IMG/VR virus record: IMGVR_UViG_2654587996_000008
Length of the DNA: 14,413 bases
Strand: one strand, 5' to 3'
Origin: a virus
Lineage: Duplodnaviria > Heunggongvirae > Uroviricota > Caudoviricetes
A model generated the notes under the pieces. That model had not been told where the DNA came from, ran no database searches, and saw only the letters and a program-made list of their open reading frames with translations. Both the position numbers and the translations under genes were made by a program. Positions 4,340-14,413 of the stretch are shown here, piece by piece; the stretch's first letter is position 1, and each line of letters opens with the position of its first letter.

Positions 4340-5482
4340 TTAAAGGGAACTTTTTTTCGCCCCTTCAATTTCTGCCTGACAAATTTCGTCATTTGTAAAT
4401 GAGTACTGCAGATAGACATATCCCTGAGTGGAATTGTTCGCTCTGGCCTCAATAGATATAGTATCAATATTGTTTTTTAATGGTATTTCTTTTGTTCCCT
4501 TCCATGTGGCAGATAAGAAGCGTTCTTTTTTGTTTAGCCCCCTCATCCAGTCCTGAGGATCTTTCCAAATTGAACCAGCCAGCAAAAAGTCTGTAGTATC
4601 AGCCTTTCCATACAGAGAACTTAAAGAATTACTCAATTCTTCAAACTTGGATTTAAGAGCCAATCCATAGCTATCAGTATCAATATTTTTTCCTAAAGCC
4701 CGTATTTGACATAAACCAGCTTTCGGGGAGATCAACAAACCATACATTTCAAAATCTGCGTTTTGCTTCGGTAATTTATCAGAAGTATACAGATTCACAC
4801 TGTCTGGTAGTGGCTTGAGCTTAGCACCGATCATATCTTCGATGTTTTTCTGTGTAAGACCGGCTTCTAAGCCAAACGGACCATCCGCTGGCGGGAGTAA
4901 AGGAAGTTGCTCTTGGGAATTTTTGGCTGTTACTTCCGTTTCAGTACTGTTTTTTGCGTCATTATCTTGTACTGATGCCAGCTTAACTTCAGCGAGGCCA
5001 TACTTGGCTGTGAGGTACTTTTGCTGCAACATTGCCATGGTCTGCTCTTCAGTGGCAACAGTAGATAATTTTAGTACCTTTATCAGACCACCACTATACT
5101 GACGAGCATCAGCTTTGGCTTCGTTGATTTTTGCATCTAAGCTGTCAATTTCAGTTTTAATTGAAGCCGCAAGCTCAGGATCAGGTTTTACTCCAGATAC
5201 AACAACATCAATTTTGGCGCCTGATTCAATAGCATTAATACGCTGTTCCAAAAGCGCTTTATTAGTTCCTAATATTTCCAGTCTTGCTGTTGTCAGATTT
5301 TTTATCAACCCACCAGAAAACTGCTGGTCAACTTCCTTAGCTGCTGATATTTCACCTTCCGTTTGCGATAGTTCAGCTTTAAGAGCCGCTACTTCCTGTT
5401 TCTGTTCTGGAGTTAACTCTTCTGGCCCACATCCGGTTAACATTACTATACCGACTAATGTTGCAATTAAAGTTTTATTCAT
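4340..5482 (-). CDS. Lipoprotein (380 aa) with internal repeats
   Basis: Signal peptide and lipobox 'MNKTLIATLVGIVMLTGC'. Repeated 'Q[FY]SGGLIK' motif and coiled-coil-like central region. Function unknown. Confidence 0.65.
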   Translation of the reverse strand: MNKTLIATLVGIVMLTGCGPEELTPEQKQEVAALKAELSQTEGEISAAKEVDQQFSGGLIKNLTTARLEILGTNKALLEQRINAIESGAKIDVVVSGVKPDPELAASIKTEIDSLDAKINEAKADARQYSGGLIKVLKLSTVATEEQTMAMLQQKYLTAKYGLAEVKLASVQDNDAKNSTETEVTAKNSQEQLPLLPPADGPFGLEAGLTQKNIEDMIGAKLKPLPDSVNLYTSDKLPKQNADFEMYGLLISPKAGLCQIRALGKNIDTDSYGLALKSKFEELSNSLSSLYGKADTTDFLLAGSIWKDPQDWMRGLNKKERFLSATWKGTKEIPLKNNIDTISIEARANNSTQGYVYLQYSFTNDEICQAEIEGAKKSSL

Positions 5483-6787: not shown

Positions 6788-8536
6788 TTATAAAAATTCC
6801 TCGGTTCTCTCCGTTTGTATAACGTTGGTTTGTATTCGTCCTTTAAAACCTCTTGTCAGGTATTCAGCCCCATATTCTCTTGCTGCTGACTTCATGGCCT
6901 TACCAAAATCACCGACACTTAATATTTCTTCTTCCCCCATATACTCCATAAAGGCGAGATATAGTCTGTACAGGCTTGTACGCGGATTAAGATCAGTTAA
7001 TCTCTTACCGCCTCCCATCATCATCCCATGCGGTTCATCAAGAAATGCAAGCGCCGCACATAACCCAATGACAGGATCAGTTTCCTGTTTTATTTTCAGA
7101 GCTTCGGCACCGTCGCGCTGCTCCAACAATAATTCCCGTGCTTTTTCTGGATCGGAAAAGTTAGCCAGTAATCGACGAATAATGACAGGTATTTCCGCCG
7201 CTATCTTTTGCGGTAACTCTTTATCCTTTTCGGTCTCCCTTACAATATTATCGAACCGAAAAATTACACGTCGACGCGCAACGCCTCCGGCCCGTTCGGT
7301 GAATGTCATCGGCACGTTATTTGTTGCCAGCACGACGGACCTGATAATTGTTGTGAAACGCTTTTCATATTTCGGGTTAATTTCAACTGGATCTCCACCC
7401 GTTATTTTTTTGATGCCGGATCCTTCACCTGTATATTTCGGCTGGTCTGCCAGGACAATAAGACGACTTCCGACAACCTGCGCACGCCCGCCAGCATCAT
7501 CAAGTGATGTCATTTCAGCGCTTACCGTGTTCTGTTTCCCTGCCAGAAGGGTGGCTATGTGCGTGATTGTGCTCTTGCCGCTCCCACCTTCCCCTGTGGC
7601 CTCAATAAACATCTGCCAGTCGTACCGGTTCGCCATAATCATGTACAGCGCGGCGCATATACGCATCATCTTTCGCGGGTCTTTTCCTGCGGCGTGATCA
7701 AGCCATTTATGAAAGTTTGGCGCGTTGTCGCGGATGTTCTCCCCTGGTACTGGTGGCGTGTACTCAATGCCGTTATGCGTGGTGATCCAGTTATCCGGCG
7801 AGTGCGGGGAAAATTCGCCAGTTTTCATGTCAAGCACGCCATTAGAGAACGGCAATAAATCACCTGACGGCTCCCCCATTGGCCTGGCCATAACTTTTAA
7901 AGCATCCACTGTATTACTTATTGCTCTCCGACTAAATGATGTTCCGTTTTCTTCGTAAATAGCCACCATTTCACGACTAAGATCCAGTGTGCTTACCGGA
8001 ACCCAAAAATCATCGCGCCAGACGTGAACAACCTCACTCTCCTGATTCATTGCTACATCCTGAAATCGTTCAGCTAAAAGTTTTGCCCTTTGGCTGTCCG
8101 CCATTCTGGAAAGAGATATTTTGTGTTTTTTCTCGGTCCTTCCTGACAGAATTTCTCCGCGCTCAGCCTGTCCGCGGATCCGTTGCAAGTAGTCGCGCCA
8201 GTTCTCCGGCTCCCGGTCGGTGATACCTTTGTATAATTTCGCCTCCTGTACGCCAGCCAGCGCCAGCTTTTCAGCGATAGCATTGATCTGGATTGGTTCG
8301 ATCTCTCCCGCGAGATAGACACGCGCAAAGCGGCGTTTCTCGTCAATAATGCGGATATTCGCCAGGTCTGCCAGTTGCTTTGGCCCCAGGTAAACAGGTG
8401 GTACGTTATCGCCGTGTTTTCGTCCTTCGCTTTCAATCCAGTGTTGAGCATGGGAGTAAGCGTCCGCCCCGGCAAAAATGATTACCTCTGTGAATTTATC
8501 CTTCGGCTGATATTTTAAATTCGGTGCGTTTTTCAC
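6788..8536 (-). CDS. P4-family primase/helicase (D5-like, Walker A P-loop)
   Basis: 582 aa with Walker A 'GEGGSGKST' and a phage/plasmid primase C-terminal-type region. GTG start at 8536 with SD 'GGAGG' 7 nt upstream; GTGA overlap with the upstream ORF. Confidence 0.85.
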   Translation of the reverse strand: MKNAPNLKYQPKDKFTEVIIFAGADAYSHAQHWIESEGRKHGDNVPPVYLGPKQLADLANIRIIDEKRRFARVYLAGEIEPIQINAIAEKLALAGVQEAKLYKGITDREPENWRDYLQRIRGQAERGEILSGRTEKKHKISLSRMADSQRAKLLAERFQDVAMNQESEVVHVWRDDFWVPVSTLDLSREMVAIYEENGTSFSRRAISNTVDALKVMARPMGEPSGDLLPFSNGVLDMKTGEFSPHSPDNWITTHNGIEYTPPVPGENIRDNAPNFHKWLDHAAGKDPRKMMRICAALYMIMANRYDWQMFIEATGEGGSGKSTITHIATLLAGKQNTVSAEMTSLDDAGGRAQVVGSRLIVLADQPKYTGEGSGIKKITGGDPVEINPKYEKRFTTIIRSVVLATNNVPMTFTERAGGVARRRVIFRFDNIVRETEKDKELPQKIAAEIPVIIRRLLANFSDPEKARELLLEQRDGAEALKIKQETDPVIGLCAALAFLDEPHGMMMGGGKRLTDLNPRTSLYRLYLAFMEYMGEEEILSVGDFGKAMKSAAREYGAEYLTRGFKGRIQTNVIQTERTEEFL

Positions 8537-8823
8537 TTCTTACCTCCCGCAACCAACATTGCCCGGATTTTTTTAATATTCTTGGCTGCACGTCTCGCCA
8601 CCGCCTGTTGTTTGTTTTCAACCAGAATAAAATCACGCTCAAACTGACGACGCGGCATTACGCAGTCATATTCGTAAGCCTCACGGCGGTAGGTGATATT
8701 GCCTGGCGTAACGTGACGAATAACCACTCGTCCCCCACGTCTGGTGTCGCGGTAAATATCTCCGTGTCTGATTTCAGGCCGAGAGAGACCGCTGGCAGTA
8801 AAGCCAGAATTTTTCTTTTTCAT
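8533..8823 (-). CDS. Hypothetical small basic protein (96 aa)
   Basis: SD 'AGGAAA' upstream of the ATG at 8823; coupled to the primase start. Confidence 0.5.
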   Translation of the reverse strand: MKKKNSGFTASGLSRPEIRHGDIYRDTRRGGRVVIRHVTPGNITYRREAYEYDCVMPRRQFERDFILVENKQQAVARRAAKNIKKIRAMLVAGGKK

Positions 8824-8827
8824 GGTT

Positions 8828-9028
8828 TTATTTTCCTGTCAGCAGTTCCGGTTTTATTTCCGCACGAATACAGAGTTCAGAAAAAAATTCAGGAGAACCA
8901 ACAATCTCATTACTTTTCAGTCGGCATTGTGATTTCACTTTCCCTTTATCCAGGTAAACCAGTACGCGTCCGGTGAAATCATCTGGCACATTAAGCACTA
9001 CGGGTACATGCGCTTCATGATTATGCAT
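8828..9028 (-). CDS. Hypothetical protein (66 aa)
   Basis: SD 'GGAGGA' upstream; ATGCATAA overlap with the preceding ORF. Confidence 0.45.
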   Translation of the reverse strand: MHNHEAHVPVVLNVPDDFTGRVLVYLDKGKVKSQCRLKSNEIVGSPEFFSELCIRAEIKPELLTGK

Positions 9029-9254
9029 GGCTTACATCCTCCGTGAATTTTCTTCTGTAACGCGCCTCTGCCACATATTCCGCATAGTCCGACGCAATAC
9101 TAAGAATCATTTCACCCTCTGACTTGTAGCCATTGGTATTGATAAGAAAATATGCAGCTTTCATCATATCAGCAACGCTTAACAATGCGCCCGCTGTATC
9201 TTCCGGTGCGCCATCAAACTCCTGTTTCAGGGAATTAAAACGATCATCACGCAT
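9021..9254 (-). CDS. Hypothetical protein (77 aa)
   Basis: G-rich SD upstream of the ATG at 9254; 8-nt overlap with the upstream ORF. Confidence 0.45.
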   Translation of the reverse strand: MRDDRFNSLKQEFDGAPEDTAGALLSVADMMKAAYFLINTNGYKSEGEMILSIASDYAEYVAEARYRRKFTEDVSHA

Positions 9255-9612
9255 GTTTACCCCCCTGAATGACCTGATAACCGCAACTGGTCAGCAATTC
9301 GATAAATTCCGGCAATGTGCCGAAACAGTAATCATCACGCAGACGTTCGCGGGATACTTCAACGCCGTTTTCGTAGTGACTCACCATACACCCGGTAAAA
9401 CGCAGATCATCATCGTGATGGCACGTTGACGGCTTAATCAGTCGCGCACGCTCCGCCAGTTCCAGCAATGCTTCAACGCTTCCGGCAATTGCACCATCCG
9501 GCAGGTGATAATTACTTACTACGCGTCCATTCTCTACATTGACCAGTAGCTGCCCGGTAAATTTCTCATCAAACTGAATGCTGTTAAGGTCAGAAATAGA
9601 CGAATTATGCAT
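9247..9612 (-). CDS. Hypothetical protein (121 aa)
   Basis: ATG at 9612 is preceded by a perfect 'AGGAGG' 6 nt upstream; the ORF-track ATG at 9630 is rejected. ATGCATAA overlap with the upstream ORF. Confidence 0.5.
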   Translation of the reverse strand: MHNSSISDLNSIQFDEKFTGQLLVNVENGRVVSNYHLPDGAIAGSVEALLELAERARLIKPSTCHHDDDLRFTGCMVSHYENGVEVSRERLRDDYCFGTLPEFIELLTSCGYQVIQGGKHA

Positions 9613-9829
9613 GGTGCACCTCCTGCACATCAGCCATGATAATTTTTCCGGCCTTATCCAGTGCCTGATCGGCTTTTAGCTGCACAAATGCTAAATAATG
9701 GGAGATGCATTCTGATTCTCTGACTGCGTGTTTATGCGCCACACCAGCGATAGCTGAAATCTCAATAAGTGAATCCATCAGCGTTTTGATAGCGTCTACC
9801 GCTGCATCAGGCCATGTTGCATTACACAT
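9605..9829 (-). CDS. Hypothetical protein (74 aa)
   Basis: SD 'AGGAGG' upstream of the ATG at 9829; ATGTGTAA overlap with the upstream ORF. Confidence 0.45.
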   Translation of the reverse strand: MCNATWPDAAVDAIKTLMDSLIEISAIAGVAHKHAVRESECISHYLAFVQLKADQALDKAGKIIMADVQEVHHA

Positions 9830-10025
9830 GCTCCACCTCCTGGCGAATACGGGCAGCGAATACCATCACGCAGCCATCAGGGGATTGCTGGCGTGCTTCC
9901 TGTTCGCTGGTGGCCTCGATGTGAATTACGCGCGGTTGTGCTGTGCTCAGGGCGATAAAACGCCAGATGTATTTATTCAGGTTGTGCGAGTCCCGCCCTT
10001 GCGGGTGTGTGGTATGATTTCTCAT
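9822..10025 (-). CDS. Hypothetical protein (67 aa), first gene of the replication operon
   Basis: Internal ATG of the long stop-free frame, at 10025, with SD 'GAGGT' 5 nt upstream. Translation 'MRNHTTHPQGRDSHNLNKYIWRF...'. Confidence 0.45.
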   Translation of the reverse strand: MRNHTTHPQGRDSHNLNKYIWRFIALSTAQPRVIHIEATSEQEARQQSPDGCVMVFAARIRQEVEHV

Positions 10026-10122
10026 AGCTACCTCGATACTGTTGCTATCGTTGGTGGTTAGAAGCCCGGTTAGTGTTAGCGCACTGCCGGGTTTCGTCGT
10101 TTCTGCACCTTGCATCAACAAG

Positions 10123-10174
10123 GTGTTGAACACCAATTTAAACCTAGGTGTTAAACACGTCAAGTGTTGAACAC
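10123..10174. promoter_or_regulatory. Three 11-bp palindromic operator-like sites GTGTT(G/A)AACAC in a divergent control region
   Basis: Sites at 10123-10133, 10148-10158 and 10164-10174. The third overlaps a plus-strand -35-like 'TTGAAC' (10167-10172), with -10-like 'CATACT' (10190-10195) upstream of the RHH gene. Confidence 0.55.
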
Positions 10175-10224
10175 TTGTTTTTTTTCCTGCATACTGCATT
10201 TGTTTTTTGTGAGGGGGACACAAC

Positions 10225-10404
10225 ATGGCGACAAAAGCAGTAAACGCAAAATCACAAACAGTTGCGGCAAGGGTTCCGCATGAAGTTATGAACAATGTTG
10301 AGGCGGTAAAAATGCCTGGTGAAAGTACAGGGCAGTTTGTAACAGCAGCATTAAAGCGAGAAGTTGAGTACCGCCAGCGGCGCAAGGCCAAAGAACAGGA
10401 GTAA
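10225..10404 (+). CDS. Small ribbon-helix-helix-like regulator (59 aa), not in the ORF track
   Basis: ATG at 10225 with strong SD 'GAGGGGG'. Translation 'MATKAVNAKSQTVAARVPHEVMNNVEAVKMPGESTGQFVTAALKREVEYRQRRKAKEQE' fits a beta-strand plus two helices. The only clearly plus-strand gene, divergent from the replication operon. Confidence 0.5.
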   Translation: MATKAVNAKSQTVAARVPHEVMNNVEAVKMPGESTGQFVTAALKREVEYRQRRKAKEQE

Positions 10405-10661
10405 CCATCACCAGCGCCGTGGTGTGAGGAACGACGGTGCATCGTTTTACAGGGCAGCGCCATGACCAACAAAGAATCAACCAATACACCATCACCGGCC
10501 CGGAAAAGACAGCGCAGAAAGATAGCGTACGAGTATGAGTCAGACAGATTCGCGCCCTGTGCGTTTATCCTTGAGAATTTCCTTAAAGAGTACAGGCGCA
10601 CAAAAATGGGGTCGCATACCTGGAAAACATCGCGACATGGCAATGTTAAAGAGCCGGAATA

Positions 10662-11084
10662 GCCCACCAGCAAGCCAGCACACTGATCACATTGCCCACC
10701 AGCCGCAAATCTGGCATTGTTGGCGATGTGTTCAAGTGTGTAGCTTTCCCACTGGTGGCCCTCTGCGGTCGCCTTTGTTTTATCCAGAACGAAATCAGAC
10801 ATCAGATTAATCAGCACCTGGCGACCTGACAAAAACGCATCAGTCGCGCCACCAGCAAAATTTTTTGCTTTCCGGACAGCGTGACCAACGACATTTTGCA
10901 GCAAAATATTCTGCATTTCTGGCGTGCTGTAGTAACGGTGATCAGCGCCTTCACTCTGTGCGACCACAACGCTATAATCTGCCTCGTAGACAGTAAGCAA
11001 TATGGCGCAGTAGGCTATTCGTTCACAAAGGCGCTCCGGCAACGGGGCGCTTTCTCTTTTTGTAACGGTCAGAGCGTTACACAT
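10662..11084 (-). CDS. Hypothetical protein, 5' portion only; 3' end undefined (possible disrupted gene)
   Basis: ATG at 11084 overlaps the antirepressor stop (ATGTGTAA). The first ~140 residues look protein-like, but the frame then runs stop-free through regulatory DNA to 9822, so the true end cannot be set. The end coordinate is arbitrary. Confidence 0.25.
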
Positions 11085-11925
11085 GGCTGTTTTCCTCCAT
11101 GCGACGGGCTAACCAACGCTGCGAAAGACGAATTAATTCAGCTTTCCGCTGGTGGTAGCCCTGGCCTAACTCAATCAGCGTGATATTGCTCTGCTCAAGG
11201 TAAGAAAGGTGCTCAAGCTGCAACGTGCTCATGTGGTCGCGTGGTTCGCCTGTGATGCCGTTCGCCTGCGCCCACTGTTTTGCAGTCATGCCACCCAGCA
11301 CGATACGCGCCAGCATATTGGCTTCCGTGGTGTAGTGGTGCTGGAACGTGTTTTTATCCAGTTCAGCCCGGTACGCCTCCAGCGCGGCACACATTGGCTT
11401 AAAGTAGCTGGCAACTGTGATACGGGCTTTCATTTCCCGGCGTAACGCTGCGGAACGCACTGGCGCTACCTTGTGTAGCTCCTCCTCGCATTTGATGAAG
11501 TACTGACGAACGGCGCGGCCCTGTTCGGTGCGTTCGACCATCGCCAGTTCTTTCGCCATGTTCGTGGAGATCAAATAGTCTTCACTGCGACGATCACCGC
11601 CGCGCTTTGTTGTCCAATCAGAATCAAACTGTTCAATATTTACACTTTGGTTCCCCCATTTCGGGGAATCAAAGTACAAATTTTCTACAACTTCAAAATC
11701 CACACCCTTTTTAAATCCGTACTCATCAATGCGTCCTTTAATCCAGGTTGTGAAATCACGACCTACCCCGAGCGCCTTATGCGACGCTCTGGCGCTAACA
11801 ATATTGGTTTCACGCCCGCCAATAACGCCGGAAATAACCGGGATAATTTCGCCAAAATTTTGCAGATTCTGGTTTTCAGGCCGAACGAAGCCCTGCCCCT
11901 GTACGGGCGTTTTTCGCAGTTTCAT
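11077..11925 (-). CDS. Phage antirepressor-like protein (AntA-type N-terminal domain plus KilA-C-type C-terminal domain)
   Basis: 282 aa with SD 'AGGAG' upstream. 'SARASHKALGVGRDFTTWIKGRI' and 'MAKELAMVERTEQGRAVRQYFIKCEEEL' match antirepressor domain signatures as I recall them. Confidence 0.6.
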   Translation of the reverse strand: MKLRKTPVQGQGFVRPENQNLQNFGEIIPVISGVIGGRETNIVSARASHKALGVGRDFTTWIKGRIDEYGFKKGVDFEVVENLYFDSPKWGNQSVNIEQFDSDWTTKRGGDRRSEDYLISTNMAKELAMVERTEQGRAVRQYFIKCEEELHKVAPVRSAALRREMKARITVASYFKPMCAALEAYRAELDKNTFQHHYTTEANMLARIVLGGMTAKQWAQANGITGEPRDHMSTLQLEHLSYLEQSNITLIELGQGYHQRKAELIRLSQRWLARRMEENSHV

Positions 11926-12002
11926 AAAAACTCCTGCTATCGAATTAAGTTACTTTTGTTTGCTGGTGGATAGTTGGGGCTTCTGGCCCCGTAGCCATTT
12001 AA

Positions 12003-12200
12003 TCAGGTAGCTGTTCCGCGTGATTCCGCAATACGCTGATTAATCCACTCGTCAATTTCACTCTCAACGAAAGCAATCGCTCGCGAGCCAATTTTTACAG
12101 GTTTAGGAAAACGCCCTTGGGCAATGAGTTTATAGATCCATGCCCTTCCATACCCTGTACGGCGCATGGTTTCTGGCATACGAATTAAAGATTGTGACAT
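12003..12200 (-). CDS. alpA: AlpA-family transcriptional regulator / excisionase-like protein
   Basis: About 65 aa from the ATG at 12200 (SD 'GGGAGA' upstream). 'IRMPETMRRTGYGRAWIYKLIAQGRFPKPVKIGSRAIAFVESEIDEWINQR' is the AlpA-type HTH signature. The ORF-track N-terminal extension is rejected. Confidence 0.75.
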   Translation of the reverse strand: MSQSLIRMPETMRRTGYGRAWIYKLIAQGRFPKPVKIGSRAIAFVESEIDEWINQRIAESRGTAT

Positions 12201-12266
12201 GATAATCGTCTCCCGTTGTTTATTGATGCCTACGGGAGACATTGAAGCAGGTAAGACATTGGATAT

Positions 12267-12303
12267 CACCGCAATTGCGGTGAATGATACCGCAATTGCG
12301 GTA
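12267..12303. promoter_or_regulatory. Tandem 16-bp perfect palindromes CACCGCAATTGCGGTG and TACCGCAATTGCGGTA (operator-like)
   Basis: At 12267-12282 and 12288-12303, centres 21 bp apart, between the 251-aa gene stop (12315) and the alpA start (12200). Confidence 0.55.
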
Positions 12304-13070: not shown

Positions 13071-13198
13071 TCTGTGCTACCTCGCACCCTCTGTAAAAGT
13101 GGCTGTGCCAGCCCGCAGAGGTGTACGGGTTTTCAGGAGCGACCCTAGACACAGCCTTTTCTTAATCGCTCAAAGTCTACTACTGTATACTCAACCAG

Positions 13199-14413
13199 TC
13201 ACCCGCATTTTCCGAACTCACCATGCACCACATTTCCGCCATGCTCGAGCGAATCCATATAGTCGGCATACCACTGGAGCATCTCCCGGCGACCATCCAG
13301 ATATTGCGCATGGTTGTATGTGCCACGAATTGAGTTTTTATCGACGTGTGCAAGCTGTGTCTCTATCCACGCGGTGTTATAGCCCTGCTCATGCAAAATG
13401 GTGCTCATGGTGTGCCGGAATCCATGACCAGTAACCTTTCCGTTATAGCCGATGCGTTTAAATACTTGGTTTATGCTAGCCTCGCTCATTGTTTTCCTTG
13501 GATCATTACGGCCGGGAAACATAAGCGGATAATTGCCAGTTAATTCTTTAATCTGCCCAATAAGCGAAAGAGCCTGCTCAGACAAAGGCACCACATGAGG
13601 GCGACGCATTTTCATCCGTGAAGCAGGTATCTCCCAGATAGCCTTGTTGAGATCGATTTCATCCCATAATGCACCGCGCAGTTCGCCAGTCCGCAAACCG
13701 GTGATAATCAGTAGACGAGCCGCCATAACAACCAATGCACTTCCTGAGTAACTGGACAATGCCTTGAAAAAATCAGGTAATTCTTTGGCTGTGAGGAAAG
13801 GATAATGACTAGATTCATGACCTTGCATCGCGCTGGTGAGATCCGGTGCAGGGTTATACTCAGCACGTCCAGTGACAATTGCATAGCGGAAAACTTCCCC
13901 GCATCGCTGCCTCACTTTTTTGGCTTTTTCGGTAGCACCGCGCCCCTCGATGCGCCGCAGCACATTCAGCAGTTCAAGTGGTTTGATTTCGGCGATTGGT
14001 TTTTTGCCAATGTAAGGGAACACATCTTTGTTGAAGGCTTCGAGGATGTCTGAAGCATAACCAGCAGACCATTTTTTTAATTTGCTGCTGTGCCACTCAA
14101 TGGCAATATCTTTGAAGGTGTTGTTTAACTGCGTTTCCCGGGCAATCTTTTCCTCTCGTTTCGCTTCCATCGGATCGATACCCCCAGCGATACTCCTTTT
14201 AGCTTCTTCACGTTTTGCACGAGCATCAGCCAAGGTAACTTCAGGATACACACCTAGTGCTAACAGCTTCTCTTTACCAGCTACACGATACTTGAAGCGC
14301 CAATATTTTCCTCCACTAGGTTTTACCAAGAGATACAGACCACCACCATCAGCCAGCTTGTAAGCCTTCTCTTTTGGCTTGGCAGTGTCTATTTGACGGG
14401 CATTGAGTTTCAC
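13199..14413 (-). CDS. int: P4-type tyrosine integrase (site-specific recombinase)
   Basis: 404 aa. N-terminus 'KLNARQIDTAKPKEKAYKLADGGGLYLLVKPSGGKYWRFKYR' is typical of P4/CP4-57-type integrases; C-terminus has 'HGFRHT' and 'RGTYNHA' (catalytic Tyr region). Apparent GTG start sits exactly at the window edge, so the N-terminus may be slightly truncated. Confidence 0.9.
   Translation of the reverse strand: MKLNARQIDTAKPKEKAYKLADGGGLYLLVKPSGGKYWRFKYRVAGKEKLLALGVYPEVTLADARAKREEAKRSIAGGIDPMEAKREEKIARETQLNNTFKDIAIEWHSSKLKKWSAGYASDILEAFNKDVFPYIGKKPIAEIKPLELLNVLRRIEGRGATEKAKKVRQRCGEVFRYAIVTGRAEYNPAPDLTSAMQGHESSHYPFLTAKELPDFFKALSSYSGSALVVMAARLLIITGLRTGELRGALWDEIDLNKAIWEIPASRMKMRRPHVVPLSEQALSLIGQIKELTGNYPLMFPGRNDPRKTMSEASINQVFKRIGYNGKVTGHGFRHTMSTILHEQGYNTAWIETQLAHVDKNSIRGTYNHAQYLDGRREMLQWYADYMDSLEHGGNVVHGEFGKCG

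Follow-up and report, generated by a model that had tools for sequence, protein, structure and literature searches.

The window analyzed here, a stretch of DNA 14,413 nt long, is a Gram-negative PICI, a phage satellite, and its replication operon is probably silenced by a small ribbon-helix-helix (RHH) protein of 59 aa, dimers of which would bind a set of short sites on two divergent promoters, shut off the Icd-like, DUF4222, and primase genes, and control expression of their own gene. The first-pass annotation had proposed that this region holds an RHH repressor/operator switch controlling replication, and that proposal is supported here, by computation only, through the positions of the sites, their covariation with the protein, and a natural swap of both between islands.

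The gene order of the window is that of the EcCICFT073 type of Gram-negative PICI (int, alpA, a replication module with a primase, and accessory/late genes), taken as an island of about 10–15 kb without lysis or tail genes. The genes that place the window in this class encode an integrase, an AlpA-like protein, an AntA/Rha protein, a DUF4222 protein, a D5_N/DUF5906 primase, and a PerC-like protein, and Rfam detects an int-alpA RNA on the minus strand at 49.8 bits, over threshold. RefSeq names the first minus-strand gene 'host cell division inhibitor Icd-like protein' in the E. coli matches, and sequence evidence supports its place as the first gene of the putatively repressed operon. Some part of the window is matched in 2306 of 5426 complete E. 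coli genomes, and the 901 bases around the control region in 1388 of the same 5426. The same control module is present in EcCICFT073, where C_RS30120 (YlcI/YnfO family) stands divergent from C_RS30125 (Icd-like) and the operators are two copies of GTGTGGCCCAC; induction by helper phage and packaging are known for that island (PMC6092414). When the RHH and Icd-like proteins were compared with 50,697 phage records by tblastn, a single record matched, vB_KppS-Ant, which from its length (16.5 kb) and gene content looks like a packaged capsid-forming PICI. The features discussed below are collected in Table 1.

Table 1. Genes, predicted promoters, putative operators, and other features of the window
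Feature	Position	Strand	Basis or remark
Integrase	13199-14413	-	Gene annotation
AlpA-like gene	12003-12269	-	Upstream of the replication operon
AntA/Rha Bro-type protein	11077-11925	-	Upstream of the replication operon
Long open frame, 420 codons	11084..9822	-	ATG on the AntA/Rha stop codon; ends in frame as Icd-like
66-aa gene, second in plus-strand operon, phrog_21027	10462..10662	+	Gene call, PHROGs
59-aa protein, YlcI/YnfO family, proposed repressor	10225..10404	+	SD GAGGGGG 10211-10217, 7 nt before ATG
Predicted RHH-gene promoter	10167..10195	+	TTGAAC (10167-10172), 17 nt, CATACT (10190-10195)
Site 3, palindrome 3, GTGTTGAACAC, putative operator	10164..10174	.	Exact; abuts minus-strand -35, contains plus-strand -35
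Site B, palindrome 2, GTGTTAAACAC, putative operator	10148..10158	.	Exact; in minus-strand promoter spacer, touching -35
Predicted sigma-70 promoter of Icd-like/replication operon	10135..10163	-	TTGACG (10163-10158), 17 nt, TAAATT (10140-10135)
Site A, palindrome 1, GTGTTGAACAC, putative operator	10123..10133	.	Exact; spans -5..+6 of minus-strand promoter
Inverted repeat CACCTTG-N6-CAAGGTG	10106..10125	.	Overlaps left edge of site A
Structured antisense RNA, ~80 nt, SymR-like	10023..10103	+	Covariation, Rfam, own covariance model
Icd-like (host cell division inhibitor-like) 67-aa gene	9822..10025	-	NF033153 71.7 bits; RefSeq
Rest of operon: four small ORFs, DUF4222, primase-helicase	6788..9829	-	Gene calls, families
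DUF4222 gene	8533-8823	-	Family match
D5_N/DUF5906 primase-helicase	6788-8536	-	Family match

Between the start of the operon (10025) and the 59-aa ORF lie three exact GTGTTNAACAC palindromes, whose centers at 10128, 10153, and 10169 give spacings of 25 and 16 bp. The repeats, first noticed as three near-identical 11-bp palindromes with about this spacing, are exact, and they are not what shuffled sequence produces: with at most one mismatch, the window contains four matches to the pattern against 0.40 expected, and none of 200 dinucleotide shuffles reaches four. The fourth match (1374-1384) is probably due to chance. Palindrome 3 forms part of a longer, perfect palindrome of 17 bp, CAAGTGTTGAACACTTG, and palindrome 1 can likewise be extended, to GGTGTTGAACACC. 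A search for lambda-type cosN (GGGCGGCGACCT, 3 mismatches) gave matches at chance level, and so the repeats were rejected as cosB-type sites.

The minus-strand promoter was predicted by a consensus scan (9 of 12 matches, with +1 near 10128), and its CACGTCAA is conserved in nearly all of the related loci described below. The plus-strand promoter of the RHH gene was read by eye from the sequence, the promoter scan giving no call there; its -10 ends 30 nt before the RHH start, and relatives have TATACT at that place. By the same reading, the -35-like hexamer that had been thought to be overlapped by the third palindrome does lie inside it. The two promoters stand back to back, with the putative operators at places where a bound repressor would stand in the way of RNA polymerase, and since sites A and B fall on the +1 and on the spacer and -35 of the minus-strand promoter, their occupancy would keep the operon off. 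We count against the repressor reading that both promoters are consensus-level predictions. Overlapping site A, the inverted repeat at 10106..10125, which takes the form CCTTGA-N5-TCAAGG in other operator classes, is possibly a 5′ hairpin of the operon mRNA.

The palindromes themselves might act as RNA hairpins, palindrome 3 with its T8 tract terminating an antisense RNA and palindrome 1 forming a hairpin at the 5′ end of the operon mRNA. A terminator scan does list 10161-10177 followed by TTTTTTTT, as well as 10134-10122, but both hairpins are weak (-6.4 and -5.4 kcal/mol, z about -1.5), and palindrome 3 was rejected as a terminator on this ground; the antisense RNA already has a terminal hairpin of its own near 10103, and the asymmetric sites of most other operator classes, found at the same positions, cannot form hairpins. 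We consider this reading highly unlikely. It would be still more surprising if the repeats were iterons of a replication origin bound by a primase or initiator, as repeated short sites beside a T-rich stretch and near replication genes might suggest: identical sites occur with unrelated replicases (DUF927, AAA_25), the sites coincide with promoter elements, and PICI origins have been reported to colocalize with primase/SSB genes (PMC10111431).

For the gene proposed to encode the repressor, the plus-strand ORF with a strong SD described earlier was recovered as such. It had been called unannotated, which does not hold, given that RefSeq carries a 'YlcI/YnfO family protein' in homologous islands and that NCBIfam NF041551 (YlcI/YnfO) recognizes residues 9-50 at 59.7 bits (E 2e-16), above its curated cut-off of 30. 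An AF2 model (pLDDT 80.5) has the beta-strand, helix, turn, helix arrangement of the RHH (Arc/MetJ/CopG) superfamily, and the 59-aa protein accordingly models as an RHH fold. Comparison by hhalign with Arc and CopG gives an E of about 0.01 and a probability below 5%, in the correct RHH register; the fold prediction and this register agree with the RHH likeness that was first suspected. In the alignment R16 falls on Arc R13, and residues 12 and 14 fall on Arc Q9 and N11, which are base-reading contact residues. By sequence or profile the protein had no significant match to a curated RHH family or a solved RHH protein, which counts against the repressor reading. Pfam gave sub-threshold matches alone for it and 32 homologues (PSK_trans_fac 0.03, CB_ParB_C 0.15), a sequence-profile search of the PDB gave nonsense matches with no solved structure near, and Foldseek against the PDB gave none that were significant. 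Homologues occur in Escherichia, Salmonella, Klebsiella, Pectobacterium, Serratia, Proteus, Xenorhabdus, and other genera, with M1, A2, T3, N7, K9, S10, R16, H19, G32, E33, S34, Q37, F38, E46, and R50 invariant in a 32-sequence alignment, and one variant of the protein is indexed in 5351 blocks of an assembly collection. A full-text search for YlcI/YnfO returned nothing functional. SvtR, omega, VapB12, ParD2, and NikR are further proteins named in comparison with the 59-aa protein.

The RHH gene and the 66-aa gene that follows it could together form a toxin-antitoxin-like addiction module, in which case the sites would serve the autoregulation of the pair and any effect on the operon would be incidental. 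We think this improbable. The 66-aa product matched no toxin family in Pfam or NCBIfam, there is no conserved cognate toxin gene directly downstream of the kind that defines type II toxin-antitoxin systems, and the second gene differs (57, 69, 75, 108 aa) or is uncalled in loci having the same RHH protein and operators. In addition, it is the opposite promoter, at its -10, +1, and spacer, that carries two of the three conserved sites, rather than the promoter of the RHH gene.

The evidence that ties the sites to the 59-aa protein comes from related loci (31 from species-representative genomes, the loci of two E. coli protein variants, and EcCICFT073). In 28 related loci, representing some ten genera, the same layout recurs, with sites at about -102, -77, and -32 relative to the RHH ATG. 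An equivalent of site A is present at about -102 in all related loci, and the equivalent of site B at -77 is always followed by GTCAA, the minus-strand -35; a third site, at -32 and directly after the TATACT of the plus-strand -10, is found in most. Palindrome 3 is confined to the operator class of the window, L002, and L004: in the window and L002 it stands at -61 and there is no -32 site, and L004 has both. The position of the sites is steadier than their sequence, of which the 28 loci show at least nine different cores, the outer GTG...CAC being mostly kept; most of the other operator classes have, at the same positions, direct repeats that are asymmetric.

When the beta-strand residues of the 59-aa protein (11-16) are tabulated against the operator site, the pairings are QT[VLI]AAR with GTGTTGAACAC, Q[SA]LK[SA]R with GTGTGGCCCAC, [KR]KLEAR with GTGTCAGCCAC, QK[VL]Q[AT]R with GTGGACTCCAC, KRFDVR with GTGTCGGACAC, QSVTAR with GTGTAAGACAC, and QKMSAR with CTGGCACCCAG. 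Site B is shared, at no more than one mismatch, in 90% of the 62 pairs with the same residues 12 and 14, as against 0.6% of the 316 pairs in which these residues differ; a permutation over the 16 distinct peptides, which ignores kinship among the loci, never reached this (0/20000, p < 5e-5). Operator cores co-vary with residues 12 and 14, the predicted DNA-contacting residues of the beta-strand, and R16 and the outer GTG/CAC are constant, a pattern that gives indirect support to a dimer whose paired beta-strands would read the major groove of the DNA. On the other side, the spacings of 25 and 16 bp count against the repressor reading, for neighboring RHH dimers usually touch at a spacing of 7-11 bp.

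Natural mosaics separate the sites from most of their neighbors. Aligned with the window, the E. coli island L033 shows 83-100% identity over 9854-10120, where the leader and most of the Icd-like gene lie, and 90-100% over 10330-10389, in the C-terminal half of the RHH gene, whereas identity falls to 47-70% over 10121-10329, which holds the operators, the promoters, and RHH codons 1-35; the operators of L033 are GTGTAAGACAC/GTGTCTTACAC. This recombinant supports a specificity unit made up of the operators and residues 1-35 of the protein. Elsewhere, one RHH protein (P0044), unchanged in sequence and with an unchanged control region, stands beside DUF927 or AAA_25 replicases and among varying first genes, second genes, and AlpA types, and a second RHH/operator type (P0027) occurs with D5_N or AAA_25 replicases. 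The same operator set is found in the company of three different replicases. The mosaics argue that the specificity determinant moves together with the N-terminal half of the RHH protein and, by the same comparison of sequences, would not move with the Icd-like, primase, AlpA, or Bro protein or with the 66-aa partner.

These exchanges also bear on whether a different protein binds the palindromes and the 59-aa gene is a bystander, the candidates being AlpA, the AntA/Rha Bro protein, the Icd-like protein, the primase, and a host factor. There is some reason to ask, since PHROG families 6196 and 1743, which match the Icd-like part, are labeled transcriptional repressor, and Bro-type proteins can be repressors (PMC10111431). 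Between the window and L033, however, the operators change although 83-100% identity is kept in the Icd-like gene and leader, and the same operators recur alongside different types of AlpA, in islands that have a Bro gene and in islands that lack one, and beside various first genes and three types of replicase; a host factor, for its part, would not need at least nine island-specific variants of its site. We judge a different binder to be quite improbable, and retain the 59-aa protein as the likely ligand of the sites.

The region is more crowded than a repressor gene and its operators would require. Its description as a divergent control region stands in so far as the putative operators lie on two promoters, and falls short in that the region also holds an antisense RNA gene and a long minus-strand frame. 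The interval between 10025 and palindrome 1, in particular, is not a mere leader, for within it lies a gene for a conserved structured antisense RNA, whose sequence is complementary to the Icd-like mRNA at its SD, start codon, and leader. Its -10, TATGAT, lies at 10013-10018 with a TG at 10010-11 (TAnnnT is invariant in the alignment), its predicted start is at about 10024-10026, and it ends near 10103 in its own GC-rich terminal hairpin and U-rich tail. The fold in the window has an MFE of -37.2 kcal/mol (z -4.7), and the loop of the first hairpin carries an anti-SD. Among 24-25 aligned sequences the structure comprises three helices with 24 pairs, 16 of which show compensatory changes; 96.7% of cells are paired, as against about 40% with the partners slid, and none of 500 shuffles reaches the observed values. 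Because the alignment contains 91 G-U cells against 2 A-C cells, the structure is assigned to the plus-strand RNA, with the caveat that it had been predicted on that strand.

This RNA resembles SymR. The Rfam SymR model (RF01809) aligns full-length at 32.9 bits in the window (10026-10098) and at 40.4 bits (E 3e-4) at the homologous place in L008, scores below its gathering threshold of 61 bits, so that neither is a member of the family by that measure. Conversely, our own covariance model (R1), built from the aligned sequences, which gives 78.8 bits in the window, scores the annotated K-12 symR at 33.9 bits (E 5e-6), and on this evidence from models of the two sequences the antisense RNA and SymR are related. 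Each is about 77-80 nt long, is promoted inside the first codons of its target, and is complementary to the start codon and SD of that target, and in both cases the target promoter is under a repressor (here, a predicted one). The present case differs from SymR/symE of K-12 in that the target is Icd-like, not SymE, in its phage satellite context, and in its below-threshold score. The Rfam models of C4 and IsrK had no match, with E values of up to 1 in the window and up to 5 in seven related loci.

The second additional element is the long minus-strand frame, which begins at cATGTGTAA with GGAGGA upstream and runs antisense through the 66-aa gene, the RHH gene, the operators, and the leader. 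The minus-strand frame whose wobble positions coincide with those of the RHH gene is free of stops inside that gene in 27 of 27 loci, and over the 200 nt upstream it is stop-free in 21 of 27, against 1-13 stops there in the other two frames. In L002, L015, and L035-L037 the frame passes the RHH gene and operators and ends about 30 nt or less from the start of the first gene; in L008 it is interrupted just before the RHH start, and it is interrupted also in L013, a locus outside the 27. Resampling of synonymous codons gives a chance of 0.03-0.5 per gene of staying open, with a product of 1e-8 over 12 class representatives that were treated as independent though they are not strictly so. In relatives the long frame begins 5-58 nt after the alpA stop. 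No family in Pfam or PHROGs matched its first 353 residues, which therefore show no sign of encoding a functional domain; a homologue search with the first 140 residues found near relatives alone and one deletion variant, and PGAP sometimes annotates near relatives of the frame as long 'Icd-like' proteins. We infer that the frame may be kept free of stops to allow translation of AlpA-driven transcripts across the region, the upstream AlpA-like and AntA/Rha genes (11077..12269, minus strand) being the presumed source of the read-through transcription.

This arrangement recalls the immunity region of P4 (PLL-vis-eta, with PLE, CI RNA, and kil nested in eta), a comparison for which we draw on the summary in PMC10111431. 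In P4, kil is the end of eta, whose start lies past the alpA homologue and before the internal promoter, and it is translation of eta that keeps transcription from terminating prematurely (PMC10111431). As read from the sequence, the window has the same design, its small Icd-like ORF being the in-frame end of a long ORF that starts upstream of the predicted internal promoter. Both systems have an alpA-type gene followed by a long frame, an internal promoter, a leader with a regulatory RNA, a small killer or division-inhibitor ORF that ends the long frame, and a primase operon. They differ in that P4 immunity is by RNA only, with CI processed from the sense transcript, whereas the window is predicted to make a separately promoted cis-antisense RNA and to carry, on the opposite strand, an embedded gene for a protein repressor together with its operators. 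A CI/C4 immunity RNA of the P4 type with seqA/seqC targets was not found, and a search of the phage collection (50,697 records) detected no homology to P4 Kil.

Taken together, the sequence evidence leads us to infer the following mechanism. Dimers of the 59-aa protein would bind the 11-bp GTG-N5-CAC sites, and with palindromes 1 and 2 occupied, replication and the toxic Icd-like gene would be off in the resident island. Palindrome 3, on the repressor's own -35, would provide autoregulation, which in most relatives may instead act through a site over the repressor's own +1. The SymR-like antisense RNA would block translation of leaky Icd-like mRNA. After helper infection, AlpA would drive transcription from upstream, and translation of these transcripts in the long frame would cross the repressor gene and operators. 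Both the repressed promoter and the antisense RNA would thereby be bypassed, in the manner of PLL/eta in P4, and repressor expression would be disturbed.

The literature on Gram-negative PICIs leaves room for such a repressor. The founding paper describes the global repressor as 'unclear' and states that the islands 'are transcribed unidirectionally', and in EcCICFT073 AlpA is an activator that the helper phage switches on (PMC6092414); a later survey divides PICIs into integration, Bro, replication, and late zones and reports C4/IsrK-type immunity RNAs in some islands, with the RHH gene unmentioned (PMC10111431). Among open-access papers and preprints, none turned up that connects PICI control with YlcI/YnfO or with an RHH protein. 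That AlpA explains the induction of EcCICFT073 without a repressor (PMC6092414) counts against the repressor reading, and it modifies the earlier expectation of derepression on helper infection: since induction goes through helper-activated AlpA, the switch may also be bypassed from upstream. A broader proposal is that the RHH repressor, the antisense RNA, and the AlpA-driven translated antisense frame form the three layers of the missing master switch of Gram-negative PICIs, translation of the long frame bypassing the two blocks and shutting the repressor gene down. We put this forward tentatively and regard it as rather doubtful.

Among the closest known systems are the master repressors Stl and Rpr of SaPIs and other Gram-positive PICIs, which share with the module described here a small regulator gene between the integration genes and the replication operon, transcription away from the operon, operators in the common promoter region (str/xis-replication), and a presumed silencing role. 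Stl is of the HTH type; it is not RHH and has no sequence relation to the 59-aa protein. Unlike that of Stl, the proposed repressor gene here is embedded in a long read-through frame, in antisense orientation. Repression by Stl is relieved when it binds a protein of the helper phage (PMC6092414), whereas here the known trigger is the activator AlpA. With the Arc/Mnt, CopG, and omega repressors the 59-aa protein shares the beta-alpha-alpha fold (predicted here), an invariant R16 that corresponds to Arc R13, and several short operators over promoters with autoregulation (both predicted here), and it differs in spacings of 25, 16, and 45 bp, wider than the usual tandem arrangement. The K-12 proteins YlcI (DLP12) and YnfO (Qin) belong to the same NF041551 family and are likewise small proteins in mobile elements. 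K-12 ylcI, however, adjoins a lambda-type cos and is divergent from nohD, and PICI-type operators and an antisense RNA were not seen in its context.

RHH repressors whose operators lie on divergent promoters are a well-known type of device. What appears to be new is the assignment of such a device as the repressor module of Gram-negative PICIs, the model island included, together with an apparently readable specificity code of the operators and its placement inside a read-through frame like that of P4, beside an antisense RNA related to SymR. In Enterobacterales, PICIs are very common, and they move virulence and defense genes; if the assignment is correct, their quiescence and induction become directly testable in EcCICFT073, the YlcI/YnfO family gains a function, and the operator classes offer a set of orthogonal small repressor/operator pairs. 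A repressor gene opposite a translatable frame would likewise be an unusual dual-coding design, with selection on both strands. Finally, the link to SymR suggests an origin for the SymR RNA of K-12.

In the Icd-like gene, the first of the replication operon, the Shine–Dalgarno sequence and the start codon face an antisense RNA on the opposite strand. Its structure carries 16 compensatory pairs, with 91 G-U cells against 2 A-C cells. Scores against the Rfam SymR model fall under threshold (32.9–40.4 bits), and a covariance model built from the antisense RNA sequences matches K-12 symR at an E value of 5e-6. The antisense RNA is a relative of E. coli K-12 SymR.

Coordinates, strands and distinguishing properties of the RNA elements, the repeat and the long reading frame of the window
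Feature	Coordinates	Strand	Remarks
Antisense RNA, ~80 nt	10023-10103	+	-10 at 10013-10018; conserved, structured
Inverted repeat CACCTTG-N6-CAAGGTG	10106-10125		overlaps left edge of palindrome 1 (first predicted operator)
Long frame, 420 codons	9822-11084	-	starts on AntA/Rha stop codon; in-frame end is the Icd-like protein
Two good intrinsic-terminator-like hairpins	10754-10773, 11028-11053	+	downstream of 66-aa gene
int-alpA RNA (Rfam RF02996)	13087-13155	-	49.8 bits, above gathering score of 35.8

The RHH gene (encoding the proposed repressor), the operators and the leader are all crossed antisense by the long minus-strand frame, which has no stop across the RHH gene in any of the related loci (27 of 27). 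The window's frame resembles eta/kil of the satellite phage P4. Long forms of 214–236 aa are sometimes named 'Icd-like' by PGAP, and in phage record LR881103 the long ORF is annotated and the RHH gene left unannotated. We also observed that the segment of the frame encoding 'GGQCDQCAGLLVG' (window ~10660–10700), immediately beyond the stop of the 66-aa gene, retains ~74% identity among island variants that are divergent elsewhere; rather than a protein motif, this segment may represent an element that works as DNA or RNA. Both terminator-like hairpins are likewise contained in the long frame, and they would end the RHH operon transcript ahead of an antisense run into the AntA/Rha gene.

The inverted repeat is kept, as CCTTGA-N5-TCAAGG, in islands of other operator classes, and is thus independent of RHH specificity. 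It could form the hairpin at the 5' end of the operon transcript, or be bound by a conserved factor.

At a locus of Edwardsiella hoshinae NBRC 105699, the RHH protein is identical to that of the window over residues 1–58, and the operators and antisense RNA are near-identical. Coverage of the window by any one E. coli genome reaches at most 72%, at ~97% identity. These observations suggest that the module spread recently between genera.

Variants of the module occur in other islands. Locus L035, from E. coli CP028381, carries a second control module at locus positions 4466–5125, in tandem with and upstream of the first. This module contains an antisense-RNA-like element of its own, another set of palindromic repeats (AATGTGTATATACACAT...), an unrelated RHH protein (FQFRLDPDLREKMEKAQ...) and an ORF homologous to the 66-aa one in the window. 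In module 1, the long frame begins at the ATG that opens the 'first gene' of module 2. P0076, a 234-aa E. coli protein, is a deletion variant in which long-frame residues 1–155 are joined straight to the Icd-like end; the RHH gene and the operators are missing, as is part of the antisense RNA, and its source would be a natural repressor-less island.

In E. coli K-12 prophage DLP12 (L043), ylcI (580251–580445), after which the family of the RHH protein is named, is divergent from nohD, with a lambda-type cos (cosN and three Nu1 R-site-like repeats) between them. PICI-type operators and the antisense RNA are absent at this locus, and the ylcI namesake subfamily may therefore have a different role.

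Elsewhere in the window, the int-alpA RNA lies in the gap separating the integrase from the following gene, and it is found too in three related loci (L003, L005 and L022).
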